A DNA stretch of 64,000 nucleotides from Deltaproteobacteria bacterium. Lineage in GTDB: Bacteria > Myxococcota_A > UBA9160 > SZUA-336. Shown in pieces: positions 4,032 through 52,468 of the stretch. The notes under the pieces were generated by a model, which saw nothing but the letters and a program-made list of their open reading frames with translations, did no database searches and was not told the origin of the DNA. The translations under genes and the position numbers were made by a program. Positions within the stretch are counted from its first letter, which is position 1. Every line of letters starts with the position of its first letter. The stretch covers positions 54,494 to 118,493 of the forward strand of contig JANNLG010000016.1 of assembly GCA_031396695.1 (NCBI GenBank). Reading direction: 5' to 3'.

Positions 4032-4042
4032 GCGTTCCGCCG

Positions 4043-5027: not shown

Positions 5028-6713
5028 ATGACGACCGGCTACTACACCGCATCGCACGACTTCGTCCGGCTCGAGAAGCTGCCCTTCTCGCTGCGCGAGA
5101 TCGACGGCACGATCGTGGGCGAGCTCGGCGGGCGCGACTACGCGGCGATGTCGACCGCGCGCGTGATGCGCGCCGCGCAGACGTTCTTCGAGCTGCCCAC
5201 TCGGGGGATCGGCGGCGAGTCGCGTGTCGGACGCGCGCGCGTAGAGCCGGGCAATCTCGCCGCGCTGCTGGCGCGCAAGCCGATCGCGGTGTACGAGGAT
5301 TCCGACAGTGGCCTGCTGCGGATCCAGTATCGCGAGGTCGTGCTCCGCTTCAAGCCGGACACTTCCCTGAAGCGCAGGGTGGAGATCCTCGAAGCGTCCG
5401 GCCTGAGACTCCGCAGCCGGCATCCGCTGATTCCCGACCAGATCATCGCCTACGACGCCGAACGCCGTTTCTCAGGGGACGATCTCGTCAGCACGGCCGC
5501 GCGTCTGGCCGAGACCGACGGCGTCGTCTTCGCGACGCCGAACTTCGTGTCGCAGTACCGGCGCGACGCGCGACGAGGCGGCAGCCGGCCGCCACGCGGC
5601 CAATGGCACCTGCCGCTCGTGGGCGCGGCCGAAGCCTGGAAGACAACGCGCGGCAAGTCGGCGATCACGATCGCAATCGTCGACGACGGCGTCGACATCG
5701 CGCACCCGGACCTGCGCGCAAACATCCGCCGCCGGCCGGATCGGCACGAGCGGCGCGACCTGTACGGACGCGATTTCTTCCTGCGCGACACCGATCCGGG
5801 TCACTTCGATCCGCGCCCGAAGCGCTTCCGCGCGCCCTTCGGCCAGATGCGCGGCAACGACATCCACGGCACGTCCTGCGCGGGCGTCGCCGCGGCGCGG
5901 GGTCCGCACGTCTACGGCATCGCACCGAACTGCCGGATCCTGCCCGTGAAGGCCTTCCACGCCGACGACCTCGCCGCCGACGCGCAGGTTGCGGACGCGA
6001 TTCGCTACGCGGCGCTGCACGCCGACGTGCTGTCGTGCTCCTGGGACGGACCGCGCAGCCCCGATCTCGAGTTCGCGCTTCGCGACGCGATGGCGCTCGG
6101 TCGCAACGGCCGCGGCGCGATCGTGGTGGGCGCGAGCGGCAACGGGCGCGTCGCGCGCGTCGGCTACCCCGCATCCGATCCGAACGCGATCGCGGTCGGC
6201 GCGTCTACCGACAAGGACCTGCTGGCCTCGTACTCCAATCGCGGCGTGCAGGTCTGGGTCGTCGCGCCGTCGAACGGCGGAGAGCTCGGGGTCTTCACCA
6301 CCGACGTGAGCGCGGCGGGTCGCGGCTTCAACACGGGTACGCAGGTGGCGGGCGGCAGCGACGGGCTGTGCACGAACGACTTCGGCGGCACCTCGTCGGC
6401 CACGCCGCTGGTCGCCGGACTGTGCGCGCTCCTGCTGTCGATCGATGCGAAGCTCTCGCTCGCGCAGATTCGCGGCGTGCTCAAGTCGAGCTCGCGCAAG
6501 ATCGGCCCCGCTTCGGCGTACGACCCGAACGGTCATTCGACGAGCTACGGCTGGGGCCGACTCGACGCCGCGGCCGCGGTGGCGCTGGTCGCGGAAGCCG
6601 CCAAGGCGAAGCGCAAGCGCCCCGCCGCGAAGGCGAGAACGCAGCGCGCGACGGCTTCGCACGAGACTCGCGAGCTGCGCATTTCGGCGCGGCGCGCTGC
6701 GCCGAGGCGCTAA
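5028..6713 (+). CDS. S8 family serine peptidase (subtilase)
   Basis: Catalytic motifs IVDDGVDIAHPDL (Asp), HGTSCAGVAAA (His) and GTSSATPLVAG (Ser). No obvious signal peptide. Lys/Arg-rich C-terminal tail. Confidence 0.8.
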   Translation: MTTGYYTASHDFVRLEKLPFSLREIDGTIVGELGGRDYAAMSTARVMRAAQTFFELPTRGIGGESRVGRARVEPGNLAALLARKPIAVYEDSDSGLLRIQYREVVLRFKPDTSLKRRVEILEASGLRLRSRHPLIPDQIIAYDAERRFSGDDLVSTAARLAETDGVVFATPNFVSQYRRDARRGGSRPPRGQWHLPLVGAAEAWKTTRGKSAITIAIVDDGVDIAHPDLRANIRRRPDRHERRDLYGRDFFLRDTDPGHFDPRPKRFRAPFGQMRGNDIHGTSCAGVAAARGPHVYGIAPNCRILPVKAFHADDLAADAQVADAIRYAALHADVLSCSWDGPRSPDLEFALRDAMALGRNGRGAIVVGASGNGRVARVGYPASDPNAIAVGASTDKDLLASYSNRGVQVWVVAPSNGGELGVFTTDVSAAGRGFNTGTQVAGGSDGLCTNDFGGTSSATPLVAGLCALLLSIDAKLSLAQIRGVLKSSSRKIGPASAYDPNGHSTSYGWGRLDAAAAVALVAEAAKAKRKRPAAKARTQRATASHETRELRISARRAAPRR

Positions 6714-23960: not shown

Positions 23961-24635
23961 TCAGATGTGCTTGCGCACCTGAGTCGCGACGATGCCCGCG
24001 CCGACGATCATCAGCAGCACCGAGCTCGGCTCCGGGATCGGGTTGTTCGGGCCGGGGCCGGGCGTCGGGATGCGGTTCTCGTCGATGCGCAGCCCGGCGA
24101 GCGCGAAGTCGTTGTGCTCGCCCGAATCCGGCACGAGTCGGATCGAGGTGACCCAGCGGTTCACGCGCACGCTGAGCTCGCCGTCGCTGTTCGCGTAGTC
24201 GGAGTCGAAGTTGATGTCGAAGCCGTTGCCCATGATCGAGCCGGTCTCGTCGACGCGCAGGTAGTAGCGGCCCGAAGTGCTGAGCAGCGCGATGTCCACC
24301 GAGGTCAGGAACACGGCCTGCTCGAAGCGCACCGTGAGAACCTCCGGCGAGTCGATCTGGTACGTCGAGTCAGCGCTGCAGCCGCTCACCGAGCTCGGGC
24401 AGTTGATGCCCAGGCCGTTGCCGGAGCTCCAGGTCAGGTCGCTGCCGTTCGGGCTGGCGATGAACGTGACGTCGCCGAAGGCGGAGTTCCCGCTGTAGGT
24501 GACGGTCCCGTCGTAGCCGCTCGCGATGGTCGATCCGACGGAGCGCGTCAGATTGAGGCGCGCGGCACTCGCGGTGGAACCCAACAGGGTGGCAGAGGCA
24601 GCAAGGACGACAGCAGCGGACACCAGGAAGCGCAT
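23961..24635 (-). CDS. PEP-CTERM sorting-domain protein (secreted, exosortase substrate)
   Basis: N-terminal signal peptide MRFLVSAAVVLAASATLLGSTASA. C-terminus NNPIPEPSSVLLMIVGAGIVATQVRKHI is a PEP motif + TM helix + basic tail. Confidence 0.75.
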   Translation of the reverse strand: MRFLVSAAVVLAASATLLGSTASAARLNLTRSVGSTIASGYDGTVTYSGNSAFGDVTFIASPNGSDLTWSSGNGLGINCPSSVSGCSADSTYQIDSPEVLTVRFEQAVFLTSVDIALLSTSGRYYLRVDETGSIMGNGFDINFDSDYANSDGELSVRVNRWVTSIRLVPDSGEHNDFALAGLRIDENRIPTPGPGPNNPIPEPSSVLLMIVGAGIVATQVRKHI

Positions 24636-24800: not shown

Positions 24801-25325
24801 CTACTTGGCGTCGGAAATTGCCTGTAGGACCGAGTCCACGATCGCCTCCGCCTTGGCGCGCATCTCGGCGTCGGTGGCGTCCTGGATCGGGTGAGGTACG
24901 AAGACGCAGCGAACGTCGGGCAGGCCGAGTGCGCGCGCCTGACCCGCGGCGGCGTCCTCGAAGACGCTCGAGGCCACGAAAACCGACGGCCGACCCTGGA
25001 GCTCGAACCAAACTGTGTCGTGCACACTGCACGTCGTACAGGAGCCTCAATCGGCCAGGGCTTCGATCACGAAGCCGCACTCCTCTGCGATCCGGCGCCG
25101 CAGTTCGAGCGGCGCGGGCTTGGTGAACGTGGGTTTGCGGTAGCGCCGGAACGCGACGTCGGGCAATCGCTCGCGCAGTAGCTGCTCGAGCCGGTCGAGC
25201 AGCACATCGCCGCGCGGCTTGATGATGTCGAGCAACGCGACCGTGCCCGTCACGGTGCCGTGTCGAGCCGCGAGCGCGCGGCGGATCGGCACGCGCTCAT
25301 CGGTGGGATCGAGAATCGTCGTCAC
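24801..25325 (-). CDS. UGSC-motif selenoprotein (in-frame TGA at 25049..25047 read as Sec)
   Basis: ORFs 25047..26003 (C-terminal ~92 codons) and 24801..25025 are in the same frame, separated only by TGA. Read-through gives ...IAEECGFVIEALAD-U-GSCTTCSVHDTVWFEL... (Sec-Gly-Ser-Cys then CxxC). Start GTG 25325 overlaps the upstream TGA (GTGA). A hairpin lies 7 nt downstream of the UGA. Confidence 0.6.
25013..25041 (-). promoter_or_regulatory. SECIS-like hairpin downstream of in-frame UGA
   Basis: mRNA sequence CUGU-ACGA-CGUG-CAGUGUG-CACG-AC-ACAG: 4+4 bp stem with internal loop and 7-nt apical loop, starting 7 nt 3' of UGA. Position is consistent with bacterial SECIS elements. Not energy-computed. 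Confidence 0.4.
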
Positions 25326-27949
25326 CCGGAGCTTCCCTCGTCTGTTTCGATCGCGCGGGTCGTCATTACAGAGCCGAGCGGTCCCGACACCCAGCCCTGG
25401 AAGTATGCGCCGAACTTCCCCGCCTCGCCGCCCGCGACGACCAGGGTGATGTCCCCGGGCGTGCGGAACTTCGGCACGCGCGCCTCGGCGCCGAGCTTCG
25501 CGAGCAGCTCGTCGGGCAGGCCCTCGGCGCAAACGTCGTCGCGCAGCAGCTCGCGCAGCGGACGCGACGTGACCTCCTGAATGCGCGCGCGGAGCTGATC
25601 CTTCGTGAAAGCGTCGCGTTTGAAGGTGTCGACGTGCTCGGGCGGCACGACCACCACGATCTCGCCGTGCAGGTAGTGCTTGGGGTGGTTCGCCGCCTGC
25701 AGCACGAGTCCGTAGCTGGTGGCGAGCCCGCGCGCATCGCGGGACAGCTGGTCGATGAAGCCGTTCGGCGCGCCGCCGGCGAAGGCGGTGACGGTGCTCT
25801 GCTCGCGCGCGAAGCCGCGCTCGACGTGCAGCGGCGCCCAGTCGCTGCGCTCTTCGTTCTCCGCGAAGCACATCGTGAACTTGCCCGGCTGACCGAGCGC
25901 CGCGCGGTCGACCTCGCCGGGTCGACCGCCACCCAGGTTCCGCACCACGAGCTGCACCGCCCGGCCGATCGTCGCGTTGGCGCGGTTGCCCTGCCCCAGG
26001 CAATTGATTCCGGAGTTCATGCCGATGCGCGCGCGGATCGGGCCGTTCACGATCAGCACCGGCGTGGGAAAGAACGTGGTCGCCAACACGCCGTGCAGGT
26101 TGAACTCGGGCGTGCAGATCGCCTCGACCGCTGCGATCACGACTGGAAGGTAGGCGGGCTTGCAGCCCGCCATGACCGCGTTGATCGCGATCTTCTCGAC
26201 CGTCGCGGGCGCGTAGTTCGGCGCGACCTCGGCCACCACGTCCTGCGCCGCGCGGCGTGTGCCCTCGAGCATGCGCATGACACGCTCGGGTGTCGGCGGA
26301 ACGACGGGTAGCCCGTCCGTCAGGCCCTGGTCGAACAGGAACTCGAACGGATCGTCGGCGTCGCCGAGCTCGATCCGGCGCGCGCGCATCGGGCTGCTCG
26401 AGGCACGCGCCTCGAACCGCGCGGCCACTTCGGGATCGTTCGTGCGCGAGCCGCAGCCGGGGCGAAGCTCAGGTAGACGCGACCAATCGCGCGCCGGAGC
26501 GGGCGTTCCGGCGAGCTGCGCCATGCGTTCGAATAGCGCGCGCCAATCCTCGCGCGCGAAGCCGACGTAGCGAGCGAGCTCCTCGCCCCCTGCGTCGAGC
26601 AGCACTGTGGTCGGAACTGCATCGATCTCCGCGCCGAACGAGACCGTGAGCGCGGAGTCGTCGAGAAACGGCGTGCGCAGGCCGTGCTTCTCGCGCAGCG
26701 CGCGCCCGCCGTCGTCATCCTGCGAGACGATCGCCACGTCGAGCACCGTGCCGAACGCTTCGTGCGCCGCCTCGACGATCGGAAGCGTGAGCTCGCAGGT
26801 GGGACAGCCCGCGTGGGCGAACACGAGCAGCCTCGCTCGGCCCGACGGCCACACGTGCGCGCGCGCATCGGTGTCGAGCAAGCGAAACGCGGGAACCGCC
26901 GCCACGCGCGCAGTATAGCCGGAGCGCCAGCGAGCCTGCGGGGCAGGCTTCGGAGCGCGCATCTTCTCGAGCTCGTGCTTGAAGCGCTCGCACGGGTCCT
27001 CGTCGTCGACGCGCGGCGTGAACCAGATCAGATCGAACTCCGTGCCGAACTCGGCCGCGCGTAGCGACGGGTCCTGCTTCGATTCGACGGAACCGGCGGG
27101 CACCTCGCTGAAGGCGAGCGTGAGCACTCGGCGCTGCGGCTCCCGCCGAGCCAAGTAGAGCGGCACGCCGCGGTCGCGCCGGACGTGCCCCGTGCCCGCG
27201 ATCAACACGCCACCGTCGGACTCGCCCGACCCGAGTAGCGCGTCGGCGAGCGTCGCGTCGCGCGCGCGTTGCACGGCGATCATCGCGTCGACCATCGCCT
27301 CGGGCGCCATCCCGCAGTGCGCCTCGCGCACTTCGTCCGCGAACGCCCGCCGCGCCTCGTCCGACGGGGGAGGCTCGAGCGCGAGCCGCGCGCGCTCGGC
27401 GGGCGGAAGCGCGTCGAGTGAGCGAAGCCGCATCTGCGCGAGCTGCGCGCGAGCGAGATCTCCGGGCACGATCGCCAACCGCGCTGCGAGCGCCGCCGCG
27501 AAGATCGGCCGGTACAGCGCGAAGTCGGGCCAGCCGCCGTGCGCCCAGTCGAGCGCCACGGCGAGCGCGTCGGGGTCGTCGGGATGCGCCGCGATCGCGG
27601 CCTCCAACACCGCTGCGCGATCGCGGGGAATCATCTCGAACACCACGGCCGGCCGCCGTCCCGCGCCCGCGAGCGATTCGACCAGCCACGCCTGCAGCCG
27701 GTGATGGTCCGGGTTGTCGTGCTTCTCGCCCAGCAGCACGAACGCGGAGCCGCGCGCGCGCGAGAGAACGTCGGCGGGCGTGACGAAGCGACGCTGTTCG
27801 GTGTCGAGGATGCGCCCGACCAACGCGTCCTCGCGACCCAGCGGTGCCTGCCAGGCGAGCCACGGCTCTGGCACCGCTCGCGGCGCGATCGCGGAATTCG
27901 CGCAGCCAACGACGAGGCTCGCGAAGAGCAGCGCGGTGGCGAGCCGCAT
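25322..27949 (-). CDS. 876-aa lipoprotein: ChaN-family domain + TlpA-like thioredoxin (CPTC) domain + C-terminal domain of unknown function
   Basis: Single stop-free frame from ATG 27949. Lipobox LVVGCANS. ChaN motifs VLLGEKHDNPDHH and VVFEMIPRD. Redoxin segment LLVFAHAGCPTCELTLPIVEA ... VPTTVLLDAGG. Then ~430 aa with Cys-containing conserved-looking blocks (AINAVMAGCKPAYLPVVIAAV, GINCLGQGNRANATIGRA). The upstream part of the 25322..28480 ORF is shadow. Confidence 0.6.
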   Translation of the reverse strand: MRLATALLFASLVVGCANSAIAPRAVPEPWLAWQAPLGREDALVGRILDTEQRRFVTPADVLSRARGSAFVLLGEKHDNPDHHRLQAWLVESLAGAGRRPAVVFEMIPRDRAAVLEAAIAAHPDDPDALAVALDWAHGGWPDFALYRPIFAAALAARLAIVPGDLARAQLAQMRLRSLDALPPAERARLALEPPPSDEARRAFADEVREAHCGMAPEAMVDAMIAVQRARDATLADALLGSGESDGGVLIAGTGHVRRDRGVPLYLARREPQRRVLTLAFSEVPAGSVESKQDPSLRAAEFGTEFDLIWFTPRVDDEDPCERFKHELEKMRAPKPAPQARWRSGYTARVAAVPAFRLLDTDARAHVWPSGRARLLVFAHAGCPTCELTLPIVEAAHEAFGTVLDVAIVSQDDDGGRALREKHGLRTPFLDDSALTVSFGAEIDAVPTTVLLDAGGEELARYVGFAREDWRALFERMAQLAGTPAPARDWSRLPELRPGCGSRTNDPEVAARFEARASSSPMRARRIELGDADDPFEFLFDQGLTDGLPVVPPTPERVMRMLEGTRRAAQDVVAEVAPNYAPATVEKIAINAVMAGCKPAYLPVVIAAVEAICTPEFNLHGVLATTFFPTPVLIVNGPIRARIGMNSGINCLGQGNRANATIGRAVQLVVRNLGGGRPGEVDRAALGQPGKFTMCFAENEERSDWAPLHVERGFAREQSTVTAFAGGAPNGFIDQLSRDARGLATSYGLVLQAANHPKHYLHGEIVVVVPPEHVDTFKRDAFTKDQLRARIQEVTSRPLRELLRDDVCAEGLPDELLAKLGAEARVPKFRTPGDITLVVAGGEAGKFGAYFQGWVSGPLGSVMTTRAIETDEGSSG

Positions 27950-28590
27950 CAGCCCGATTCCAGGTCGACGCCCGCGAGCGCGAGTCCGATCCAGACGATC
28001 CCGAGCAGCAGCGACGCGAGCGATGCCGCCACGAACACGCGCCGATAGGCGCGGCTCGCCTCCTGTTGCGGCGCGAGCACCCCGAGCAGCCAGGCGATCC
28101 CCATCATCGAGACGACGGTGCCTGCGCCGAAGCCGGCCAGATAGAGCGACGACTCCAGCCAGGAATGCATGCCGGCGGCGGGCAGCACCGCCAGCGTGGC
28201 GCCCGTTCCGACGAGCCCGTGCAGCGTGCCGATCGAGAGCGCGGCGGTCGCGTGAATGTGAACGTGCCCCCGGCCGGCCGCGTGGGAGAAGTGGTCCACT
28301 GCGCGGCGCTGGTGCCGCAACCCCCACAGTCCGACGGCCACGAGCACGAACCCGACCAGGTAGTCGCCCGCGTCCCCGAGCAGGTCCAGGTCGAGCCAAT
28401 CTGTCGCCGAGACGACCAGCAGAGCCACCGTGATGATGCCGAGCGCATGACCGATGCCCCAGCGCAGGCCGACGACCCACGCTTTCTCGCGCGCCTCGAC
28501 CGAGAACGGCGCGAGCGCGGCGACGTGATCGGGCCCGAGCACCACGTGCCCGAAGCCGGCTGCGAGACCGGTGAAGAAGACGAGGATCAC
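27949..28590 (-). CDS. HupE/UreJ-like (or NicO-like) metal transporter membrane protein
   Basis: Polytopic membrane protein with GFGHVVLGPDHVAALAP (H-x4-G-x-DH type motif) and HVHIH. GTG start overlaps the gamma-CA stop (GTGA); stop overlaps the downstream ATG. Confidence 0.5.
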   Translation of the reverse strand: MILVFFTGLAAGFGHVVLGPDHVAALAPFSVEAREKAWVVGLRWGIGHALGIITVALLVVSATDWLDLDLLGDAGDYLVGFVLVAVGLWGLRHQRRAVDHFSHAAGRGHVHIHATAALSIGTLHGLVGTGATLAVLPAAGMHSWLESSLYLAGFGAGTVVSMMGIAWLLGVLAPQQEASRAYRRVFVAASLASLLLGIVWIGLALAGVDLESG

Positions 28591-29123
28591 GGGGTCGGAC
28601 GCGCCAGCGCGGCCCGGTACTCGGCCGCGAGCTCCACGTAGTGGCGGTTCTGCTCGTCGAGCACCGCGCGTTCCTCGTCGGACACGGGCCGGACGAAGCG
28701 GGCGGGCCGGCCGAGCCAGAGCTCGCGCGAGCCGACGCGCTTTCCGGGCGAGAGCAGCGAGCCTGCGCCCAGCATGCCCTCGCTCGCGACCACCGCGCCG
28801 TCCAGGATCACCGAGCCCATACCCACGAAGGCGCGATCCTCGAGCGTGCAGGCGTGCACGATGCAGCCGTGGCCGATCGTGACCTCTACACCGATCAGCG
28901 TCGGCAGCCCCTCGCGCGAGACGTGGATGATCGAGCCGTCCTGGAAGTTCGTGCGCGCGCCGATCCGCACCTGCTGCACGTCCCCGCGCACCACGCAGCC
29001 GAACCACACGCTCGCCTGTGCGCCGAGCTCGACGTCACCGATCAGCGTCGCCCCCGGAGCCACGAACGCATCGGGCGCGAGACGCGGCAGGCATCCGCGG
29101 TAGGGCAGCAACCGGGCTTCCAA
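28587..29123 (-). CDS. Gamma carbonic anhydrase family protein (hexapeptide-repeat, YrdA/PaaY-like)
   Basis: Left-handed beta-helix hexapeptide repeats (IGDVELGAQASVWFGCVVRGDVQQVRIGARTNFQDGSIIH) with the His ligand pattern. Confidence 0.8.
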   Translation of the reverse strand: MEARLLPYRGCLPRLAPDAFVAPGATLIGDVELGAQASVWFGCVVRGDVQQVRIGARTNFQDGSIIHVSREGLPTLIGVEVTIGHGCIVHACTLEDRAFVGMGSVILDGAVVASEGMLGAGSLLSPGKRVGSRELWLGRPARFVRPVSDEERAVLDEQNRHYVELAAEYRAALARPTP

Positions 29124-29235
29124 AGTGCGCGGATTCTACCGCCCGCGCGCAGGCTTAGAAGCTCGGGGGCGGCGCCGCGAACGGTCCCGGGATGAATCTT
29201 GACTTGTTTGTACAGTTTATTAGGCTGCGGGCTCG
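29124..29235. promoter_or_regulatory. Divergent promoter region between the gamma-CA/selenoprotein operon and rrf2-suf operon
   Basis: 112-bp spacer with the only AT-rich tract locally (CTTGACTTGTTTGTACAGTTTATTAGGCT), containing a TTGACT -35-like hexamer and partial dyad symmetry. Likely the Rrf2 operator and promoters. Confidence 0.4.
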
Positions 29236-29709
29236 ATGCAGCTTCTCGCGCAAGAAGAGTATGGGTTGCGCTGCCTGATCCAGGTGGCCCGGCAGCGAGG
29301 CCCTGACCCGCTCACGATCCCCGAGATCGCCGAGCGCGAGGGGATTTCGCCCGAATACGCCGCCAAGCTGATGCGCGCGCTGCGTCAGACCGAGTTCGTG
29401 CTCAGCACGCGCGGCGCCGGGGGTGGCTATCGGCTCGCGCGCCCGGCCGGCGAGATCACCGCCTGGCAGGTGATCCAGGCGCTGGGCGGCTCGCTCTTTC
29501 CGGCCGAGTTCTGCGAGACGCATCCCGGCCAGCTGCGCGACTGCGTCCACTCGACCGGCTGCTCGCTGCGCGGACTCTGGAGCTCGGTCGAGAGCGCGAT
29601 CCGCAACGTGCTCGAGGGCGTGACGCTCGCCGACCTCGCACGCGACGACCGGATCCTGTTCGGGATCGACGGGCCGCCGCTCGAGCCCAAAGCGCAGGCG
29701 CCGCGATGA
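29236..29709 (+). CDS. Rrf2 family transcriptional regulator (IscR/SufR-like)
   Basis: N-terminal wHTH ([24 protein letters not shown]) and C-terminal Cys cluster (C..C..C: [18 protein letters not shown]) for Fe-S sensing. Confidence 0.8.
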
Positions 29710-31154
29710 GCAGCAATCCCGAGATCGCCGCGCTCACCAATCGCGAGTACGAGGCGGGCTTCACCACCGACGTCGAGTCCGAGACCGTCGCGCCCGGGCT
29801 CGACGAGAACGTGATCCGGCGCATCTCCGAGAAGAAGGGCGAGCCGCAGTGGCTGCTCGACTGGCGCTTGCGCGCGTACGCGCGCTGGCTCGAGATGCGC
29901 GAAGAAGACGCGCGCTGGGCGAAGGTCACGTTCCCGAAGATCGACTACCAGGCGATCAGCTACTACTCCGCGCCCAAACCGCGTAAGAAGCTCGGCAGCA
30001 TGGACGAGGTCGACCCGGAGATCCGGGCGACGTTCGAGAAGCTCGGCATCCCGCTCAGCGAGCAGAAGATGCTCTCGGGCGTCGCGGTCGACGCGGTCTT
30101 CGACTCGGTCTCGGTCGCCACCACGTTCCGCGCCAAGCTCGCCGAGCTCGGCATCATCTTCTGCTCGTTTTCGGACGCAGTGAAGAGTCACCCGGAGCTG
30201 GTGCGGAAATATCTCGGATCGGTCGTGCCCTACTCCGACAACTACTTCGCGACGCTGAACTCGGCCGTGTTCACCGATGGCTCCTTCGTGTACATCCCGC
30301 CGGGCGTGCGCTGCCCGATGGAGCTCTCGACCTATTTCAGAATCAACGAAGCGAAGACCGGCCAGTTCGAGCGCACGCTGATCGTCGCCGACGAGGGCGC
30401 GTACGTGTCGTATCTCGAGGGTTGCACCGCGCCGATGCGCGACGAGAACCAGCTGCACGCCGCGGTGGTCGAACTGGTCGCGCTCGAGCGCGCGACCATC
30501 AAGTACTCGACCGTGCAGAATTGGTACCCGGGCGACAAGGAAGGCCGCGGCGGCATCTTCAACTTCGTGACCAAGCGCGGCGCGTGCCGCGGGAAGCGTT
30601 CGAAGATCAGCTGGACGCAGGTGGAGACCGGCTCTGCGATCACCTGGAAGTACCCGAGCTGCATCCTGCAGGGCGACGAATCGGTGGGCGAGTTCTACTC
30701 GGTCGCGGTGACCAATCACTATCAGCAGGCCGACACCGGCACGAAGATGCTGCACATCGGCAAGAACACGCGCAGCACGATCGTCTCGAAGGGCATCTCG
30801 TGCGGACACGGCCAGCAGACCTACCGCGGCCTGGTCGAGATCCACCAGAAGGCGACCGGCGCGCGCAATCACTCGCAGTGCGACTCGCTCTTGATCGGCG
30901 ACAAGTGCGGCGCGCACACCTTTCCCTATCTGGATGTTCGCAACGCGAGCGCGCAGGTGGAGCACGAGGCCACCACCAGCAAGATCAGCGACGACCAGCT
31001 GTTCTACTGCCAGCAGCGAGGGCTCGGCACCGAGGACGCCGTTTCGATGATCGTGAACGGCTTCTGCAAGGAGGTCTTCCGCGAGCTGCCGATGGAGTTC
31101 GCGGTCGAGGCCTCCAAACTTCTGTCCGTGACGCTCGAAGGCGCGGTCGGTTAG
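29706..31154 (+). CDS. sufB: Fe-S cluster assembly protein SufB
   Basis: 482 aa, strong SufB conservation throughout (e.g. ...[18 protein letters not shown]...); ATGA overlap with rrf2. Confidence 0.9.
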
Positions 31155-31166
31155 CACGGAGGCGTG

Positions 31167-31927
<761 letters not shown>

Positions 31928-31931
<4 letters not shown>

Positions 31932-33256
31932 GAGGCACGCCGGCCGAGCTCGCCTTCGCGCGGCACTTCGCGGCCGCGCGGGTAGCGCAGGCGTCGCGCG
32001 AGCCGGCCTGGCTCGCCCGACACCGTGCGGAGTCGTTCGCCGCGTTCGAGGCGCAGGGTCTGCCGACCGCCAAGCACGAGGACTGGCGCTTCACGTCGCT
32101 CGCGAAGCTCGAGCAGATCGAGTTCACGGCGGGCGGAGTGGACGCGAGCGCGCCGACCGCGGAGCTCATCGCCGCTTCGCGAATCGCGCTGGGACCGGCA
32201 CACCGACTGGTGTTCGTGAACGGATGCTACGCGGCGCAGCTCTCCAGCGTCGGCGCGCTGCCTCCAGGCTGTCGCGTCGCCCCGCTCTCCGCGCTGCTCG
32301 GCTCGGACGGCGAAGCGGTCGAGCGCGTGCTCGCGAGCGCCGCCGAGCCCAAGCGGCGCGCGCTGGTCGACCTGAACTCCGCGCTGTGGAGCGACGGCGT
32401 GTTGATCGAGCTCGAGCCCGGTGCGGTGCTCGATCGTCCCGTGCACCTGCTCTTCCACCAGTCCGGAGCCGACGCCCCGGTCGGCGCCCACGTGCGCACG
32501 CTGATCGCGGCCGGCGCAGGTAGCCGCGGCACGATCGTGGAGCAACACAGCGGCGAGACGCGCCATCCCGACCTGACGAACGCCGTGACGGAGATCCGCG
32601 CCGATCGCGGCGCGCAGCTCGACCACGTGCTGGTCCAGGACCTTCCCGAGCAGAGCACCGCGTTCAGCGCGCTGCTGTCGCGCCAGGAAGCGCAGAGCCG
32701 GCTCGGCTTGCACGCGTTCACGCTCGGCGCCGCGCTCGCGCGCGCCGAGGTCGAGAGCCGGCTCGAGGGCGAAGGCGCGGAGCTCGCGCTCTACGGCCTG
32801 TACCTCGGACGCGGCACGCAGCACCCCGACCAGCACACCACGATCGACCACGCCGCGCCGCGCACGAACAGCCGCGAGCTGTTCAAGGGCATCCTCGACG
32901 AGCGCGCGCATGGCGTCTTCCACGGCCGCATCCACGTGCGGCCCGACGCGCAGAAGATCAGCGCGGACCAGACCAATCGCGCGCTCCTGCTCTCGGACCG
33001 CGCGACGATCAACAGCAAGCCGCAGCTCGAGATCTACGCCGACGACGTGAAGTGCAGCCACGGCGCGTCGATCGGCCAGCTCGACGACGAGCAGCTCTTC
33101 TACCTGCGCGCGCGCGGACTCGATCTCGCGACGGCGCGCGCGCTGTTGACCGTCGCGTTCGCCAGCGAAGTGCTCGAGAAGCTGCCGCACGATGGCTTGC
33201 GCGCGTCGCTCGAGCGCGCGCTGCTCGGCTGGCTGCCGAGCGGAGGCGGAGCATGA
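31928..33256 (+). CDS. sufD: Fe-S cluster assembly protein SufD
   Basis: Position after sufC with ATGA overlap. C-terminal SufB/D-family conservation (DQTNRALLLSDRATINSKPQLEIYADDVKCSHGASIGQLD). Confidence 0.8.
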
Positions 33257-34476
33257 GCGCGCTCGACGTCGAAGCGCTGCGCAAACAGTTCCCGATCCTC
33301 GCGCGCCGAATCCACGGCAAGCCGCTCGTCTATCTGGACAGCGCGGCGTCGAGTCAGAAGCCGGCCTGCGTGATCGAGGCGATCGCCGACTACTACGGCC
33401 GCTACCACTCGAACGTCCACCGCGGCGTGCACACGCTCTCCGAGGAAGCCACCGCGGCTTACGAGCACGCGCGCGCGAAGGTGCGCGACTTCGTGCGCGC
33501 GCAGTCTTCGCGCGAGATCGTGTTCGTGCGCGGCACGACCGAGGCCATCAACCTGGTCTCGCAGGCGTGGGCGCGACCGCGGCTCCGCCCGGGCGACGAG
33601 GTGCTCGTGACCGAGCTCGAGCACCACTCGAACATCGTGCCTTGGCAGATCGTGTGCGAGCAGACCGGCGCCAAGCTCGTGGTCGCGCCGATCGACGAGC
33701 GCGGCGACGTGATCCCCCAGGAGTACGCGCGGCGGCTCGGCGAGCGCACGCGCGTGGTCGCGCTCGCGCACGTCTCGAACGCGCTCGGCAGCGTGCTGCC
33801 GGTGGCGGAGTTCGCGCGCCAGGCGAAGTCCGTCGGCGCGCTGGTGGTCGTCGACGGCGCGCAGGGCGTTCCGCACATGCCCGTCGACGTTGGCGCGTTG
33901 GGCTGCGACTTCTACGCGTTCTCGGGTCACAAGATGTACGCACCGACGGGCATCGGTGCGCTGTTTGGACGGCTCGAGCTGCTCGATGCGATGGAGCCGT
34001 GGCAGGGCGGCGGCTCGATGATCCGCAGCGTCTCGTTCGCGAAGACCACCTTCGCGAGCTCACCCGAGCGCTTCGAAGCCGGCACGCCCAACATCGAAGG
34101 CGCGATCGGCCTGGGCGTCGCGATCGAGTGGCTCGAGCGGCTCGACTTGTCAGCCGTTCACGCGCACGAGGCGGATCTGATCGCGTACGCGACCGCGTCG
34201 CTCTCGGCGATCCCGGGCGTGCGCTTGATCGGGGATCCACGCGAGCGCGCGGGCGCGGTGTCGTTCGTGGTCGGCGACGTACACGCACACGACGTCGGCA
34301 CGATCCTCGACGGTGAAGGCATCGCGATCCGCGCGGGACACCACTGCGCGCAGCCGGTGATGGACCACTTCGACGTGCCCGCCACCGCGCGCGCGTCGTT
34401 CGCGGTGCACAACGGCCGCGACGACGTCGATCTTCTGGTCGCCGGCGTTCGCCGCGTGCAGGAGATCTTCGCCTGA
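33253..34476 (+). CDS. sufS: Cysteine desulfurase SufS
   Basis: Class II aminotransferase/desulfurase: PLVYLDSAASSQKP, SGHKMY (PLP Lys), HHCAQP active-site Cys region; ATGA overlap. Confidence 0.85.
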   Translation: MSALDVEALRKQFPILARRIHGKPLVYLDSAASSQKPACVIEAIADYYGRYHSNVHRGVHTLSEEATAAYEHARAKVRDFVRAQSSREIVFVRGTTEAINLVSQAWARPRLRPGDEVLVTELEHHSNIVPWQIVCEQTGAKLVVAPIDERGDVIPQEYARRLGERTRVVALAHVSNALGSVLPVAEFARQAKSVGALVVVDGAQGVPHMPVDVGALGCDFYAFSGHKMYAPTGIGALFGRLELLDAMEPWQGGGSMIRSVSFAKTTFASSPERFEAGTPNIEGAIGLGVAIEWLERLDLSAVHAHEADLIAYATASLSAIPGVRLIGDPRERAGAVSFVVGDVHAHDVGTILDGEGIAIRAGHHCAQPVMDHFDVPATARASFAVHNGRDDVDLLVAGVRRVQEIFA

Positions 34477-34928
34477 TGTCCGATCTGCGCGAGCTGTACC
34501 AGGAGGTCATCCTCGACCACACCAAGCGCCCGCGGAACTTCGGGACGCTCGAGCACGCGACCCATCGCGCGCAGGGACACAACCCGCTGTGCGGCGATCA
34601 GCTCGCGCTGTTCGTCGAAGTCGAAGGCGACCGCCTGCGCGACGTGAGCTTCGCGGGCCGCGGCTGCGCGATCTCGACCGCGTCCGCATCGCTTCTGACC
34701 GAAGCGTTGAAGGGCAAGACCACCGCCGAGGCGCACGCGCTGTTCGAGCGCTTCCACGCGGCCGTGACGTCGTCGTCCGACCAGCCGATCGACGTGGCGG
34801 GTCTCGGCAAGCTCGCGGTGCTCGCGGGCGTTCGCGAATTCCCCATGCGCGTGAAGTGCGCGAGCCTGGCCTGGCACACGCTCGAGGCCGCGCTCGCCCG
34901 ACGCGCCGAGCCCGTGTCGACGGAGTAG
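34476..34928 (+). CDS. sufU: SUF system NifU-family Fe-S assembly protein SufU
   Basis: HNPLCGDQL..., GRGCAIS and the third Cys (KCASLA), typical of SufU; TGATG overlap with sufS. Confidence 0.8.
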   Translation: MSDLRELYQEVILDHTKRPRNFGTLEHATHRAQGHNPLCGDQLALFVEVEGDRLRDVSFAGRGCAISTASASLLTEALKGKTTAEAHALFERFHAAVTSSSDQPIDVAGLGKLAVLAGVREFPMRVKCASLAWHTLEAALARRAEPVSTE

Positions 34929-34931
34929 ACC

Positions 34932-35270
34932 ATGAGCATGGATTCGATCGAGACCCGAGACCCCGCGACCGAGGCCCTGCGCGAGAGCGTGATCGAGGTG
35001 CTGCGCAGCATCTTCGATCCCGAGATCCCGGTGAACATCTACGAGCTCGGGCTGGTGTACGGCATCGAGATCGGCGAGGAGAACCACGTGAAGGTGCGCA
35101 TGACGCTCACCTCGCCCATGTGCCCCGTCGCCGAAAGCCTTCCCCCCGAAGTCGAGCAAAAGGTCCGCCAGATCCCCGGCGTCGCCCACGCCGAAGTCGA
35201 CCTCACCTGGGAACCCACCTGGAACCCTTCCATGATGTCCGAAGCCGCGAAGCTCCAACTCGGCTTCTAG
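34932..35270 (+). CDS. sufT: SufT/DUF59 (MIP18-family) Fe-S assembly protein
   Basis: DPEIPVNIYELGLVY...VKVRMTLTSPMCPVAE motif of DUF59. Confidence 0.75.
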   Translation: MSMDSIETRDPATEALRESVIEVLRSIFDPEIPVNIYELGLVYGIEIGEENHVKVRMTLTSPMCPVAESLPPEVEQKVRQIPGVAHAEVDLTWEPTWNPSMMSEAAKLQLGF

Positions 35271-40920: not shown

Positions 40921-41138
40921 CCACCGGCTAGCTCTCGATGGTGAGCCCCCTCCCCCCAGTGCCGCGGCACGTCGAGTGCCCGCGCGCCGGCCTACATGGC
41001 GGCGCGACGGGAGACTTGCGTTCGCGCACCGGGAACGGGCGCTCACCGGACCGCGACCATGCGGTTCGCACGTTGTGCCTCAACGAACCGGCTGCGACGG
41101 GAAAGCCCCGCCGCAGCCGGTTCCGCGAGGCGCTGGTG

Positions 41139-44100
41139 ATGCTCGCGCTCACCGTGCTTCTGTTTCCGTTCAGCGCACGCGCGCAGACACCCGCGGGCAC
41201 GCCGATCCCGAACACGGGCTACGCGACCTACGACATCGGCGCCACCACCGGAATCGTCCGGCCGTCGAACACGCTGGTCATCACGACCGCCGCGTTCGGA
41301 ACCAGTTCGAGCCTGGAGTTCATGCGCTATGCGCCCGGCGCTCCCGGCTCGATCACCTACGCCGTCTCGCCCACGCAGTGCTTCACGGGCGGATCGTTCA
41401 GCGCCCTGCCCGCGCCCACCGCGTACGGCGGCGGCGTGATCAACCTGGCCAACGTCGAGCTCGAGCTCACGTCGAGCTACCACCCGGGTGAGCCGGTCTT
41501 CGTGCGGCTGGTCGACGCGGATCAGAACCTGAATCCCGCGCTCGCCGAATCGATCCTGGTCACGCTCGCGACACCGAGCGTCGCGGACGTCGAGCAGCTG
41601 CAGCTCTTCGAGACTGGCGTGAACACGGGCATCTTCGTCGGCTACGTGCCCACGGCGGCGCCACCGGCGCCGGCGAACGACTGCGTGCTCGCCGCTCCGT
41701 CGGGTCAGACCGTCACCGGCAGCTACACCGATGCGAGTAACGCCGCGGACACCGATACCGACAGCGCGCTGATCGACCCCGAGAGCCGGGTCTTCGACAG
41801 CACGAACGGCTCGCCGGTCGACGGCGCGACCGTGACCCTGATCGACGACGCCACCGGACTGCCCGCTGCGGGCATCCTCGGCGACGACGGTCTCTCCGCC
41901 TTCCCCGCCACGCTCACCAGCGGCGGCTCGGTCACCGATGGCGGCGGGCAGATCTACAACTTCGGCCCGGGCGGCTACCGCTACCCGGTCGTTCCCGCGG
42001 GCAGCTATCGACTGCAGGTGACGCCGCCCGCCGCGTACACGTTCCCGAGCGGTGTGGCCGACGCCACGCTGCAGACCTTGCCCGGCGCACCGTTCGCGCT
42101 CGCGCTCGGCTCGCGCGGCGAAGTCTTCGCCGTGCCGGTCGGTCCGACCTTCCAGCTCGATCTGCCGGTCGACACCGCGTCGGGCTTCGGCTTCATCTCG
42201 ATCGACGCCAGCCGCGACGTGGTCTCGCTCGGCGAGCACTTCCAGTTCGACGTGCGCGTCGAAAACCCGGGCGTGCTCGGAGCGCCGCTCGGCGTCGACG
42301 TGACCGTCGTATTGCCGCTCGGCATCCGCTTCCTGCCCGGCAGCGTGCGCATCGACGACGGCAAGCAGCCCGATCCGGTGATCTCGCCGGACGGCCGCAC
42401 CCTGACCTGGACGCTACCCGCGAGCGCGCTCCCCGTCGTGACACACATCCGGTTCACCGTGAAGGTCGGGCCGAGCGCCGAGATCGGCCTCACGCGCACC
42501 ACCGCGCGCGCGCAGGCGCTGGGCGGAACGAGCACCGAGGACGCCGTCGCCACGGTGCGGGTCGTCGAGGACCTGGGCGCGAACAACTCCTACATCCTCG
42601 GCCGCGTTTCCGAGGGCGCCTGCGACACCGACGACTTCGGCGGCAAGGGCGTTTCGGGCGTGCGGGTGTACCTCGAGGACGGCTCGTTCTCGATCAGCGA
42701 CTCGAACGGCTACTACCACTTCGCCGGCGTCGTTCCCGGCGCGCACGTGGTGCAGATGGACGTGCAGAGCCTGCCCGGCTTCTACGAGCCGCTGCCGTGC
42801 GCGAAGGACGAAGGCCAGGCCTTCGCCGGCCGGCCGTTCTCGCAGTTCGTCGAGATGCAGGGCGGAACGATGTGGCGCAGCGACTTCCGTGTGCAGATGC
42901 GCGCGCGCGCGCAGGGCGGCATCAGCCAGCGGCTCGAGAGCCAGCTCGTCGGCGACACCATCCACTATCAGCTCGCGCTGCGCGGCAACGGCGTGGCCGT
43001 GCGCAATGCGCGTGCGATGGTGATGCTGCCCGAGGGCGTCCAGTTCGTGCCCGGCAGCACGCGCGACGCGGGCGCGCCGATGGCGGATCCCGAGTTCAAG
43101 GACGGCGTGCTCGTCTACCGGCTCGGCGAACACACCGAAGACAACTGGACGCTGGATCTCACGTTCGATGCGAAGCCCACGGGCCCGAGCGAGCGCCAGC
43201 TCGAGACGTCGTCCGTGGTGATGTTCGAGACGCCGGTCGAGAAGATCGGCAGGACGCCCGTCGCGAAGACGTTCCTTTCCGGCGAGTCGAGCTCGGGCAG
43301 CGGCATCCAGGTGGTCGAGACGCTCGGCCTGCGGCCGGGTGAGGATTGGAACTCGGTCACGACGCCCGCACCCGACGTCACGCCCGTGAAGCCCAGGGTG
43401 TTCAACAAGGCCTGGCTCGAGCAGGCGCAGCCGGGCTTTGCGTGGCTGTCGCCCGAGCCGGGCTTCGCCGCCGCGATCGCGAGCGTGAACATCGCCATTC
43501 AGCACGCGCCCGGCACCACACTCGAGCTGACGCAAAACGGCGTCGCGGTGCCCAAGTTCAACTTCGAGGGCGAGTTCTCCAACAACGCCAAGACCGTCTC
43601 GCTGTCGCGCTGGCGCGGCGTGGATCTGGTCGACGGCGAGAACGCCTTCGTGGTGCGCGCGCTCGACGCGCAGGGCAACGAAGTCGAGCGCTTCGAGCGC
43701 GGGCTTCACTTCGCCGGTCCGCCGTTCCGTGCCGAGCTCGTGCCCGAGCTCTCCAAGCTGGTGGCCGATGGCACCACGCCGCCGGTGATCGCCGTGCGCT
43801 TCACCGACGAGGACGACAAGCCCGCGCGCGAAGGACAGGTCGGCACGTTCCAGGTCGAGGCACCGTACCGCCCGAACCTCGAGCCCGCGCTGCGCGAGCT
43901 GAAGCGTCAGGCGGGCCAGCCGCCCGAGTTGCCGAGCTACGCGATCGGTCAGGACGGCATCGCGCTGATCGAGCTCGCGCCCACCACCACTTCCGGACGC
44001 GTGAACCTCCGCTTCGCGCTGGCCGGCAACCACGAGAAGAAGCTCCACCCCTGGCTCGAGGCGACCGCGCGCGAGTGGGTGCTGGTCGGCCTGACCGGTG

Positions 44101-48066: not shown

Positions 48067-49281
48067 ATGACGACACCCTCCGATCCGTTTCTCGGCGCGA
48101 ACCCGCTCGATCCCGCGTTCCGCGCCGATCCGCACCCGGCGCTGAAGCGCCTGCGCGAGACCCACCCCGTACACGAGACGGTGATCGGGCTGTGGCGGCT
48201 CTCGCGCTACGCGGACTGCGTTCGGCTGCTGCGCGACGCGCCGACGGGCGTGCGCCTCTCCGACGGCACGCGGCCGGGGCAGGACCGCATCCCCGCCGCG
48301 CTCGGCTCGTTCGGGCAATTCATGCTGCAGCAGGATCCGCCCGCGCACACGCGCCTGCGGCGGCTGGTGTCGAAGGCGTTCACGCCGCGCGCGATCGAGC
48401 GCCTGCGCGCGCACGTGCAGAAGCTCGCCGACTCGCTCGTCGAGCGCGCGCTCGAGCGCGGCGAACTCGACGCGATCGCCGATCTCGCGCTGCCCGTTCC
48501 GTCGACCGTGATCTGCGAGATGATGGGCGTCCCGCTCGCCGACCGCGAGCGCTTCACGCAGTGGACCGCGCACTCGACCCACCTGCTGGCCGCGTTCGCC
48601 GCGCCACCCGACGTGCTCGAGCGCGGCGTCGCCGCCTCGCAGGCGCTCGCGAGCTACTTCGAGGCGCTGATCGCGGAGCGCCGCAAGTCACTCGGCGACG
48701 ATCTGCTCTCGAACTTGATCCGCGCCGAGGAGGCCGGGGATCGGCTGTCGCCGCAAGAGCTGCTCTCGCAGTCGATCGGCCTGTTGATCGCGGGCTTCGA
48801 GACCACGATCGGCCTGATCGGGAACGGCCTGCTCCAGCTCCTGCGCCACCCCGCCGAGCTCGCCAAGCTGCGCGCGAACCCGGGCCTGATCGGATCCACC
48901 GTCGAGGAATGCCTGCGCTTCGACGGCCCGATCCTGCTCACCGTGCGCATCACCCAAGACGAAGTTCGCTTCGGCGAGCAGGTGATCCCGAAGGACCGCA
49001 TGGTGATGGCGCTGCTCGCCGCAGCGAATCGCGATCCCGAGGTGTTCCCCGACCCCGAGCGCTTCGACATCGAGCGCACGCCCAACGAGCACATGGCCTT
49101 CGGCGGCGGCACTCACTTCTGCCTGGGCGCGCACCTGGCGCGCATGGAGGCGCAGGCCGCGATTGGCGCGCTGGTGCGCCGCTCGTCGAAGCTCGAGCTC
49201 GTGTCGGACCAGCTCGAGTGGGGTCAGTCGCTGTTCCGCGTGCTCGGCAAGCTGCCGCTGCGGGTCACGCCGGCGCGCTGA
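48067..49281 (+). CDS. Cytochrome P450
   Basis: Heme-binding loop FGGGTHFCLGAHLAR, EXXR (ECLRFDGP), I-helix AGFETT. Confidence 0.85.
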   Translation: MTTPSDPFLGANPLDPAFRADPHPALKRLRETHPVHETVIGLWRLSRYADCVRLLRDAPTGVRLSDGTRPGQDRIPAALGSFGQFMLQQDPPAHTRLRRLVSKAFTPRAIERLRAHVQKLADSLVERALERGELDAIADLALPVPSTVICEMMGVPLADRERFTQWTAHSTHLLAAFAAPPDVLERGVAASQALASYFEALIAERRKSLGDDLLSNLIRAEEAGDRLSPQELLSQSIGLLIAGFETTIGLIGNGLLQLLRHPAELAKLRANPGLIGSTVEECLRFDGPILLTVRITQDEVRFGEQVIPKDRMVMALLAAANRDPEVFPDPERFDIERTPNEHMAFGGGTHFCLGAHLARMEAQAAIGALVRRSSKLELVSDQLEWGQSLFRVLGKLPLRVTPAR

Positions 49282-51166: not shown

Positions 51167-52434
51167 GGCCGCACCGCGCTGCGCAGCGCCGCGCCCTCGC
51201 GCGAATCTTCGTCGTAGAGCAGAACCTCGACCTCGGCGCCCTCGGGCATGCCCTCGAGCTCCCGCGGCACGATCACGGCGCCGTCGGCGCGCACCGTCGA
51301 CGACAGGATCGACGCGCCCGCGGTGGCGAGCGGCGCCACGCGCTCGCCTTCGAAGGCGACGCGCACGTAGTCCGTGCGGCCCACCTCGGAGCTGAGCTTG
51401 CGCGCAAGCACCGCCCGCACGCGCCTGTGCGGCCAGGCACGCGTGCGGCCGCCGAGCGCGCGAATCGAGGGCCCGGCGAAGAACTCGTACGCGCACAGGC
51501 AGCTGACGGGATTGCCCGGCAAGAGGAATACCAGCGCGGCGCCGATCCGGCCGCCGCCCGCCGGGCTCGAGGGGCGCATCGAGACGCCGTGGAAGAGCAG
51601 CTCACCGTGTTCTGCGAGCAGCCGCGGCGCGTGGTCTTCGGCGCCGACGCTCGAACCGCCGGAGACCAGCACGACGTCGGCGTCGCCGGCCGTCAGCGCG
51701 GCGGCGATCAGCTCAGGACGGTCCGGGATCAGCTCGAACGGCAACAGCGCCCCGCCGTCGCGCGCGACCAGCGCGCGCAGCACCACCGAGTTCGAGTCGA
51801 CGATCTTGACGCCGTTCGGTGTAGAGCCGGGCGGAAGCAGCTCGTCGCCGGTGACGACGAGCTTCACGCGCGGCCGGCGCACGCAGGCGACGGAGCCCTG
51901 GCCGATCGACGCGATCAAGCCTGCGTCCTGCGGCCGGAGCCGGCGGCCCGCCCGGAGCACGAGCTCGCCGGCGCGGATGTCCTCGCCGATGGCGCCGATG
52001 TTCTTGCGCGGCGCGACCGGCTCGTGCAGGACGACGCGCCCGCCGCGCTCCTCGCAGACCTCCGCCTTGACGACCGCGTCGGCGCCGGCGGGGACCGGCG
52101 CGCCCGTCATGATGCGCACCGCCTCGTCCTTGCCCACGCGCCCGGCGAACGCGCGGCCGGGAAGGGTCTCGCCGATCAGCGCGAACTCGAGCCCCGCGTA
52201 GTCGGAGGCGCCGAACGTGTCCTCGCCGCGGAGCGCGTAGCCGTCCATGGCCGAGCGCGCGAAGCTCGGCACGTCCACGCGCGAGACGACACCCTCAGCG
52301 AGCACGCGACCGACGCAGTCGAGCACGCCGACGGGCTCCGCGGCAAGACTCGCGCACAGCCCCGCGAGCAGGCGATCGACCTCCTCGACGTCCTTCCGCT
52401 CCGCGAATCCCCGCATCCGCACGTCGCGAGTCAT
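51163..52434 (-). CDS. moeA: Molybdopterin molybdotransferase MoeA
   Basis: SAMDGYAL, VLVSGGSSVGAEDH, LPGNPVS motifs; 423 aa. Confidence 0.8.
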   Translation of the reverse strand: MTRDVRMRGFAERKDVEEVDRLLAGLCASLAAEPVGVLDCVGRVLAEGVVSRVDVPSFARSAMDGYALRGEDTFGASDYAGLEFALIGETLPGRAFAGRVGKDEAVRIMTGAPVPAGADAVVKAEVCEERGGRVVLHEPVAPRKNIGAIGEDIRAGELVLRAGRRLRPQDAGLIASIGQGSVACVRRPRVKLVVTGDELLPPGSTPNGVKIVDSNSVVLRALVARDGGALLPFELIPDRPELIAAALTAGDADVVLVSGGSSVGAEDHAPRLLAEHGELLFHGVSMRPSSPAGGGRIGAALVFLLPGNPVSCLCAYEFFAGPSIRALGGRTRAWPHRRVRAVLARKLSSEVGRTDYVRVAFEGERVAPLATAGASILSSTVRADGAVIVPRELEGMPEGAEVEVLLYDEDSREGAALRSAVRP

Positions 52435-52468
52435 CGCGGAACCCGAGCCGCCTTCGGTGCTGTCCCTT

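Follow-up and report, generated by a model that had tools for sequence, protein, structure and literature searches.

The window analysed here is a stretch of 64,000 nucleotides (64 kb) from contig JANNLG010000016.1 of a Deltaproteobacteria bacterium. On its minus strand, at 24801..25325, lies what we interpret as a single gene for a selenoprotein of the UGSC family, 174 codons long including one for selenocysteine (Sec), with a GTG start and a TAG stop. Read directly from the sequence, the frame opens with GTG at 25325..25323, comprises 92 sense codons up to a TGA at 25049..25047, and continues through 81 further sense codons to TAG at 24803..24801. The read-through product, ...RIAEECGFVIEALAD-U-GSCTTCSVHDTVWFELQGRPSVF..., is 174 aa long, and its junction reads ...EALAD-U-GSCTTCSVHD...; the in-frame UGA would specify Sec93, the first residue of a U-G-S-C-T-T-C motif. 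The start codon shares bases with the TGA stop (25324..25322) of the gene upstream, giving GTGA, and a Shine-Dalgarno-like GAGGG about 10 nt 5' of the GTG (25335..25339, minus strand) may serve in initiation.

An earlier reading made from the letters of this stretch alone (hereafter the sequence-only reading) had proposed that two open reading frames (ORFs), 24801..25025 and the last ~92 codons of 25047..26003, are one frame parted by the TGA. Frame and translation agree with that proposal: the joined 174-aa protein, with U-G-S-C followed by CTTC, is identical to the one given there, and the overlap of GTG and TGA, also noted there, is seen in the sequence. The window has a G+C content of 69.9%, and TGA is the stop codon of 21 of its 32 genes supported by hidden Markov models (HMMs), including the gene directly upstream of the selenoprotein. 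We therefore rejected a genome-wide reassignment of TGA; given that this codon ordinarily ends the supported genes, any recoding must be local and site-specific.

Membership in the UGSC family

Given Cys in place of the stop, the joined protein matches NF041046 (“UGSC family (seleno)protein”) with 157.6 bits (cut-off 125; E = 2e-46) and PF24696 (“UGSC family”) with 154.9 bits (cut-off 25), the latter over profile positions 1-170 of 172. Family membership, which the sequence-only reading had raised from the motif and left to an HMM search, thus passes both curated cut-offs. Scanned separately against NF041046, the N-terminal half covers profile positions 4-68 and the C-terminal half positions 70-146 (of 147); since the two halves match adjacent halves of one profile, the TGA falls at one position inside a single domain, and the adjacency of the two matches at the junction is far beyond chance. 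The U/C-G-S-C motif stands in mid-protein (...EALAD-U-GSCTTCS), and one continuous domain runs across the UGA, as seen both in the adjacent profile halves and in the single fold modelled for a Cys homolog.

The first mention of a “UGSC-containing protein” was in Hyphomonas neptunium, with its function unknown (PMC1976440). The family was described by Zhang & Gladyshev (PMC1976440, PMC2398784) and has been in the literature since 2007-2008, with H. neptunium ABI76733.1 as the type example; recent reviews still give its function as unknown (PMC9312934, PMC13188914). The window protein shares with the known family its full-length HMM matches, the U-G-S-C at an equal position and the alternation of Sec and Cys among homologs. 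There is no essential difference between them beyond the Myxococcota-like genome from which the window member comes: the gene adds a member to an already described, curated selenoprotein family and is not a new kind of system.

Conservation of the UGA across relatives

A genome scan for related loci returned 80, spread over five or more phyla, from Myxococcota, Chloroflexota, Binatota, Gamma- and Alphaproteobacteria and Acidobacteriota. The nearest of these, L001, comes from a metagenome-assembled genome of the Myxococcota, is 87% identical, and also has the neighbouring genes in common with the window, which makes it probable that the window stems from a related organism. The homologous codon is TGA in 80/80 loci, never TAA or TAG, and its flanks are near-invariant throughout, with [A/G]LAD before it and GSCTTCS[V/L/M]HD after it. 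Ratios of nonsynonymous to synonymous substitution (dN/dS) against six relatives are 0.14-0.29 upstream and 0.11-0.17 downstream of the TGA, so that both halves are under similar purifying selection. Conservation across the TGA, whose lack the sequence-only reading had listed among the findings that would refute it, is therefore evident both in the near-invariant flanks and in the similar dN/dS of the two halves.

The same boundary is visible in public databases. A protein search yielded 1224 relatives, mostly fragments of ~95-100 aa terminating exactly at ...EALAD, and a search with the C-terminal half yielded hundreds of 72-74-aa “proteins” beginning V/M-HDTVWFE. Given these hundreds of separate N- and C-half entries, gene callers must routinely split the UGSC gene, just as had been anticipated from the sequence: N-halves of ~95 aa ending in ...ALAD and C-halves of 72-74 aa both stand among the database entries. 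Many of the orphan C-halves (P0244, P0250, P0260 and others, 72-74 aa) carry the Joint Genome Institute (JGI) product name ‘alkanesulfonate monooxygenase SsuD/...-like flavin-dependent oxidoreductase’; judged by the C-half sequences, all of which carry the UGSC Pfam domain, this name is unsupported.

An exhaustive profile search gave 2747 cluster representatives at E <= 1e-3. Among the best 150 of these, ~65 run on without a break and have Cys at the Sec position, within a D-C-G-S-C core; halves of the Sec type number ~70, and Ser, Trp or Gly occurs in three. The uninterrupted homologs P0004 and P0034, for example, have Cys at the Sec position. The in-frame UGA is thus conserved and aligns with Cys: it is TGA in 80/80 close loci and Cys in more distant homologs, and the halves are never unrelated proteins, which answers the question of homologs that the sequence-only reading had posed. 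Gly, Trp or Ser is found at the Sec position of the continuous homologs P0001, P0002, P0362, P0371 and P0460; such residues may be genuine replacements, or they may reflect a one-base change from TGA (GGA, TGG) where assembly coverage is low.

A conserved hairpin downstream of the UGA

A hairpin resembling a selenocysteine insertion sequence (SECIS), CGUGCA-GUG-UGCACG, with 6 bp and a 3-nt loop, lies at 25019..25033 on the minus strand, 13 nt after the UGA (+14..+28), and places a loop G-U at +20/+21. Across an alignment of 81 sequences, 75 of them distinct, its consensus is CGUGCA-GUN-UGCA(C/U)G, and the stem is paired in 100% of cells in the 75 distinct sequences. Variation consists of 23 changes from G-C to G-U and one compensatory change from G-C to A-U, in which L008 has A at G+18 and U on the opposite arm. 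The sequence-only reading had described a longer hairpin with a lower stem (CUGU/ACAG) and an internal loop (25013..25041, minus strand). The quoted sequence is indeed present at 25041..25013 and its upper part, 25033..25019, is conserved; the extended form is found in the window and L001 only, and the lower stem is paired in only 66% of cells across relatives, for which reason we rejected it as part of the conserved element. The longer hairpin had also been said to begin 7 nt after the UGA; it begins at the 6th nucleotide, after a 5-nt spacer.

Evidence for a function of the RNA came from synonymous variation, measured as normalised codon entropy, with 79 conserved degenerate codons outside the 12 codons after the UGA as reference (mean 0.74, standard deviation 0.14, minimum 0.33; n=79). 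Codons +5, +6 and +7, which form the 5' arm and the loop, have entropies of 0.05, 0 and 0, with Thr as ACG in 80/81 sequences, Cys as TGC in 81/81 and Ser as AGT in 81/81, whereas codons +1 to +4, which encode the equally invariant Gly, Ser, Cys and Thr, vary freely (0.64-0.99). At another conserved Ser of the UGSC gene AGT is used in 1/79 sequences, and codon +8 (Val/Leu) is always NUG. The frozen synonymous sites at +5 to +7 therefore call for selection on the RNA itself, and it is on this synonymous-site constraint that the case for the hairpin rests. As to the conservation of the downstream hairpin, which had been named as a point to be checked, the upper 6 bp are thus conserved and their synonymous variation is suppressed.

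The element has the SECIS stem-loop shortly 3' of the UGA and the G in the apical loop (G-U-N) that are expected for Sec decoding. It resembles the SECIS of Escherichia coli fdhF (apical hairpin GGUUGCAGGUCUGCACC; sequence verified in 5419/5426 genomes) in three ways: it lies within the coding sequence directly after the UGA, its arms have the form UGCA...UGCAC with the 3' arm (UGCAC) occupying +23..+27, and the G-U of its loop falls at +20/+21. In fdhF the loop G-U corresponds to G23/U24, the main SelB contacts. The window element differs in having a loop of 3 nt rather than 4, a spacer of 13 nt rather than 11, and no conserved lower helix.

A constant partner gene

The gene directly upstream (25322..26905, minus strand) encodes a protein of 527 aa; it has a GTG start and a TGA stop that overlaps the GTG of the selenoprotein gene. 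Its homologs are 517-530 aa long and 71-91% identical across phyla. Residues ~4-135 form a TlpA/ResA-like thioredoxin domain that carries an invariant C-P-T-C redox motif (residues 34-37; 26795..26806, minus strand) and has no signal peptide. The remaining ~370 aa (“X”) are very strongly conserved; the X domain proper, ~residues 185-527 (25325..26353, minus strand), has two invariant cysteines, Cys248 and Cys346. There is no Pfam or NCBIfam model for X, and sequence and profile searches gave no match in the Protein Data Bank (PDB). Compared with TlpA, ResA and DsbE, the partner lacks a signal peptide or membrane anchor, its domain beginning at residue ~4, and has its thioredoxin domain fused to a ~370-aa domain missing from TlpA proteins; the Pfam Redoxin model scores 22 bits on it, below the gathering cut-off of 26.6.

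The partner lies directly upstream and on the same strand in 70/80 loci, and clustering of all locus ORFs found no other neighbour that recurs in more than 16/80. At least 10 of the cluster representatives, 350-575 aa long, are fusions of a Cys-type UGSC domain with X, which blastp matches to the X domain of the window at E = 4e-77 to 4e-43. The existence of such UGSC(Cys)-X fusions, matching the ‘UGSC/Unknown_1 fusion’ of the Global Ocean Sampling (GOS) data (PMC2398784), argues that the selenoprotein and X act together, and the association of the window protein with an unknown domain likewise fits what was described there for the family.

Among the loci without the partner are those of Tepidiformaceae (L028, L036, L055 and L069), where the UGSC gene is preceded by a conserved ORF on the opposite strand (~5170..5610; 109-113 codons, M/V-PFMLVRL[EQ]C[KR]YGK...). 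In these organisms the partner gene must lie elsewhere in the genome or be absent.

Predicted fold and redox core

The structural description draws on the AlphaFold2 (AF2) model of P0004, a Cys homolog 55% identical to the window protein. This model has a mean predicted local distance difference test (pLDDT) score of 90.5 and five beta-alpha units; Cys95, equivalent to the Sec, stands between strand 87-93 and helix 96-111, and the second Cys is in the first turn of the helix. Redox CxxC motifs are usually arranged in this way. The core conserved across the whole family is this CxxC (D-C-G-S-C); where the Sec subfamily has its third Cys, other members often have Trp, Ala or Ser.

By this model the UGSC fold is predicted to be flavodoxin/Rossmann-like alpha/beta. 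A ‘likely Trx-like fold’ had been proposed for UGSC in 2008 (PMC2398784); the thioredoxin fold, with its mixed beta-sheet and CxxC on the helix after beta1, does not agree with the model, and we did not adopt it. PDB sequence and profile searches with the UGSC protein found nothing.

We also considered the selenoproteins of the clostridial glycine, sarcosine and D-proline reductases, GrdB, GrdF and PrdB, which resemble the UGSC system in joining a UxxC selenoprotein with a partner subunit; for GrdB and GrdF, re-reduction proceeds by way of a thioredoxin system. Residues 81-170 of the UGSC protein, around the Sec, give weak matches to profile positions ~340-424 of GrdF (E = 0.03) and GrdB (E = 0.11), in the C-terminal part of these proteins that holds their own Sec. 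Membership in these families (TIGR01917, NF040794, PF07355) was rejected, the scores of 11.4 and 13 bits falling far short of the 602 and 800 required, and PF07355 (Pfam GRDB) giving no match at E <= 1. GrdB, GrdF and PrdB are more than twice as large as the UGSC protein, whose partner has no similarity to the GrdE or PrdA models. The logic of the glycine and proline reductases, a UxxC selenoprotein, a partner subunit and thioredoxin, may nevertheless be the nearest functional analogy, as distinct from membership.

Linkage to the selenocysteine machinery

Among the 80 loci, 12 have selA within ~6 kb, and nine of these 12 also have selB and three selD. A tRNA-SeC(tca) gene lies directly upstream of the pair of partner and UGSC genes in ten alphaproteobacterial loci, and in the isolate Sulfitobacter sp. 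M05 (L065) selA, selB, tRNA-Sec, partner and UGSC follow in this order on one strand. These ‘Sec islands’ (L056, L058, L059, L064, L065, L066, L068, L073, L074 and L080; ~600-6500 in each) belong to Sulfitobacter, Hyphomonadaceae and Caulobacteraceae and hold selA, selB and tRNA-SeC(tca) within ~6 kb upstream of the pair, with selD also nearby in L066 and L059.

In some Binatia and Chloroflexota (L053, 2655..3095; L011, 1..2646) the UGSC gene is preceded by an AhpC/TSA ORF whose start corresponds to profile position 39 and no earlier, and some loci of these groups have an upstream DUF3179 ORF that matches its profile in two stretches. Both families have Sec forms, and the truncated AhpC/TSA and split DUF3179 ORFs could likewise belong to selenoprotein genes interrupted by a UGA.

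Other genes of the window

Directly downstream of the selenoprotein gene, at 23961..24635 on the minus strand, is a gene for a secreted protein with a weak PEP-CTERM signal (TIGR02595, 19 bits; cut-off 16), common only to L001; the sorting signal implies an exosortase system in the organism. Upstream of the partner, from 27949 on the minus strand, lies a gene for a ChaN-like haem-binding lipoprotein (PF04187; signal-peptide start MRLATALLFASLVVGC). It has TGG at 26927..26929 where L001 has the stop TAG, and its frame continues stop-free into the partner gene, which reflects either a genuine fusion by loss of the stop or an error in the sequence. Further away are a gamma-carbonic anhydrase gene (28587..29135) and, divergent from it, a suf-type Fe-S assembly operon (29307..35270, plus strand) with SufB, a SufC-like ABC ATPase, further ORFs, a NifU-like scaffold and FeS_assembly_P. 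We rejected the window neighbours (ChaN, PEP-CTERM, LLM oxidoreductase, gamma-carbonic anhydrase, DUF1015 and SufB) as functional context because they are common only to L001, the LLM gene also to one further locus.

Two regions farther off were also noted. At 49265..54607 (minus strand) two MoeA genes, one of them fused to a PBP-like domain, accompany an AFOR_N/AFOR_C aldehyde:ferredoxin oxidoreductase and a ThiS/MoaD-family protein, which suggests a tungsten or molybdenum pterin enzyme module. A 1902-codon ORF at 40932..46640 (plus strand), with a strong coding bias in third-position G+C (GC3) of 0.93, has no Pfam match at E <= 1e-6, and the same holds for the 385-codon ORF that precedes it.

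Weighing the alternatives

Taking all of the evidence together, we put the probability at roughly 0.9 that 24801..25325 (minus strand) is one 174-residue UGSC (seleno)protein gene, decoded with Sec by way of the hairpin and working with the upstream partner. Comparison among relatives shows one gene, a conserved UGA, a hairpin under selection at the RNA level and a constant partner. The sequence-only reading is thereby borne out in what it observed and in how it was interpreted, save for details of the hairpin.

Several observations weigh against this interpretation or against parts of it. The 64 kb window holds no selA, selB, selD or tRNA-Sec by ARAGORN, Rfam, HMM scans or six-frame tblastn: ARAGORN and Rfam found tRNA-Asn only, HMM scans of the supported ORFs gave no selA, selB or selD, and tblastn with E. 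coli SelA, SelB and SelD gave a sole SelB match, which is the TypA GTPase domain. That this organism can decode Sec is accordingly presumed from the 87%-identical L001 and from other lineages. Nor is the hairpin remarkable as a single sequence. On its own, the 63-nt stretch that follows the UGA folds with no unusual stability (minimum free energy -16.8 kcal/mol, z = +0.69 relative to shuffles), and we rejected fold energy as evidence; since such stability is unexceptional for a sequence of 70% G+C, the evidence for the hairpin comes from comparison and not from energy. Covariation support is thin, with one compensatory change, most pairs invariant and shuffling controls not significant, and it was because mostly invariant pairs make covariation statistics weak that synonymous variation was measured. 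No Rfam family matches the hairpin at the gathering threshold or at E <= 10 on 24900..25150, where the sole permissive match was a chance one on the opposite strand; this negative says only that the element fits no Rfam family. The bulged U of the E. coli element is also missing from it. On the functional side, the structural evidence comes from the model of a homolog, the UGSC family is without any characterised member (PMC1976440, PMC13188914), and the redox mechanism and the role of the partner are what we infer.

One alternative is that the TGA is a real stop, so that the locus encodes a pair of independent small proteins or is a split gene in decay, with the downstream ORF starting from GTG 25025. 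It would agree with the lack of Sec machinery in the window, with TGA being the commonest stop codon there, and with the hundreds of database entries that gene callers have split exactly so. We give it almost no credence: a stop would hardly be TGA, and never TAA or TAG, in 80/80 loci across phyla, the two halves fall within one HMM and one predicted fold, and Cys-type homologs are uninterrupted. Purifying selection is moreover equal on either side of the TGA, synonymous sites are frozen in the hairpin just after it, and in Alphaproteobacteria selA, selB and tRNA-Sec stand within ~6 kb upstream of the pair. A second proposal is that near-cognate decoding or suppression lets the UGA be read through as one of the standard amino acids Trp, Cys and Gly, to which the occurrence of Trp (P0002, P0371) or Gly (P0001, P0460) in a few database homologs lends some colour, as does the fact that the evidence for Sec machinery comes from relatives and not from this genome. 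Four points together make this very improbable: in Cys-type homologs the first Cys of a conserved CxxC falls at this position, the classic Sec/Cys pattern; the conserved hairpin has fdhF-like geometry; relatives have selA, selB and tRNA-Sec in physical linkage with the UGSC gene; and the family is curated as a selenoprotein family (NF041046; PMC2398784).

The hairpin might also be a by-product of the invariant peptide CTTCSVHD, with no function as RNA, given that it overlaps the most conserved peptide of the protein and in view of its mostly invariant pairs, non-significant shuffling controls and unexceptional stability. Amino-acid conservation leaves synonymous sites free, however, as the variation of codons +1 to +4 attests, and it accounts neither for the frozen codons +5 to +7, with a rare Ser codon in every sequence that is used once in 79 at another conserved Ser, nor for the constant NUG at +8, nor for the A in L008 that is matched by a U on the opposite arm; we regard a by-product as highly unlikely. 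A more serious objection accepts the insertion of Sec and takes U-x-x-C-x-x-C as a set of metal or Fe-S ligands, making the protein a metal or cluster carrier. CxxCxxC is a common spacing for cluster binding, and the suf operon and the ChaN-like gene lie within a few kb in the window. Only the first two of the three positions are family-wide (D-C-G-S-C), however, the third Cys often being Trp, Ala or Ser, conservation of the suf and ChaN neighbours extends no further than L001, and the thioredoxin-type CPTC of the constant partner points to dithiol/disulfide chemistry, so that a carrier role appears to us unlikely.

Proposed mechanism and significance

For the Sec-decoded UGSC gene and its partner we propose the following. 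The ribosome would decode the UGA at 25049..25047 as Sec in a SelB-dependent manner; by analogy with E. coli fdhF, the hairpin at 25033..25019 would present its loop G-U 20-21 nt after the UGA and recruit SelB-GTP-Sec-tRNA(Sec). In the protein, Sec93 is predicted to stand at the end of a beta-strand, before a helix with Cys96 and Cys99 (U-G-S-C-T-T-C), and the core U/CxxC pair Sec93/Cys96 most likely cycles between selenolate/thiol and selenenylsulfide. Selenoprotein and cytoplasmic Trx-X partner may thus form a two-protein thiol/selenol oxidoreductase, in which the thioredoxin-like CPTC domain of the partner would be the likely re-reductant, exchanging electrons with the selenoprotein, and the ~370-aa X domain the likely catalytic or substrate-binding module. 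We would go further with some hesitation, and suggest as a tentative idea, somewhat short of an even chance, that the pair is a self-contained, widespread Se-dependent oxidoreductase of two proteins in which X is catalytic and without a solved structural relative, and that some alphaproteobacterial selA, selB and tRNA-Sec genes are kept largely for it.

For annotation, the consequence is that ORF 24801..25025 and the tail of 25047..26003 merge into one selenoprotein gene; hundreds of public entries are divided in just this way. UGSC proteins rank with the most abundant selenoproteins of aquatic metagenomes. The picture of Sec decoding is left unchanged by these findings; their residual value is a well-defined two-gene module around an uncharacterised family function, predicted to be that of an oxidoreductase. 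The handles on this function are the constant partner gene, the Rosetta-stone fusions of UGSC(Cys) with X, and the linkage to selA, selB and tRNA-Sec in culturable Sulfitobacter.

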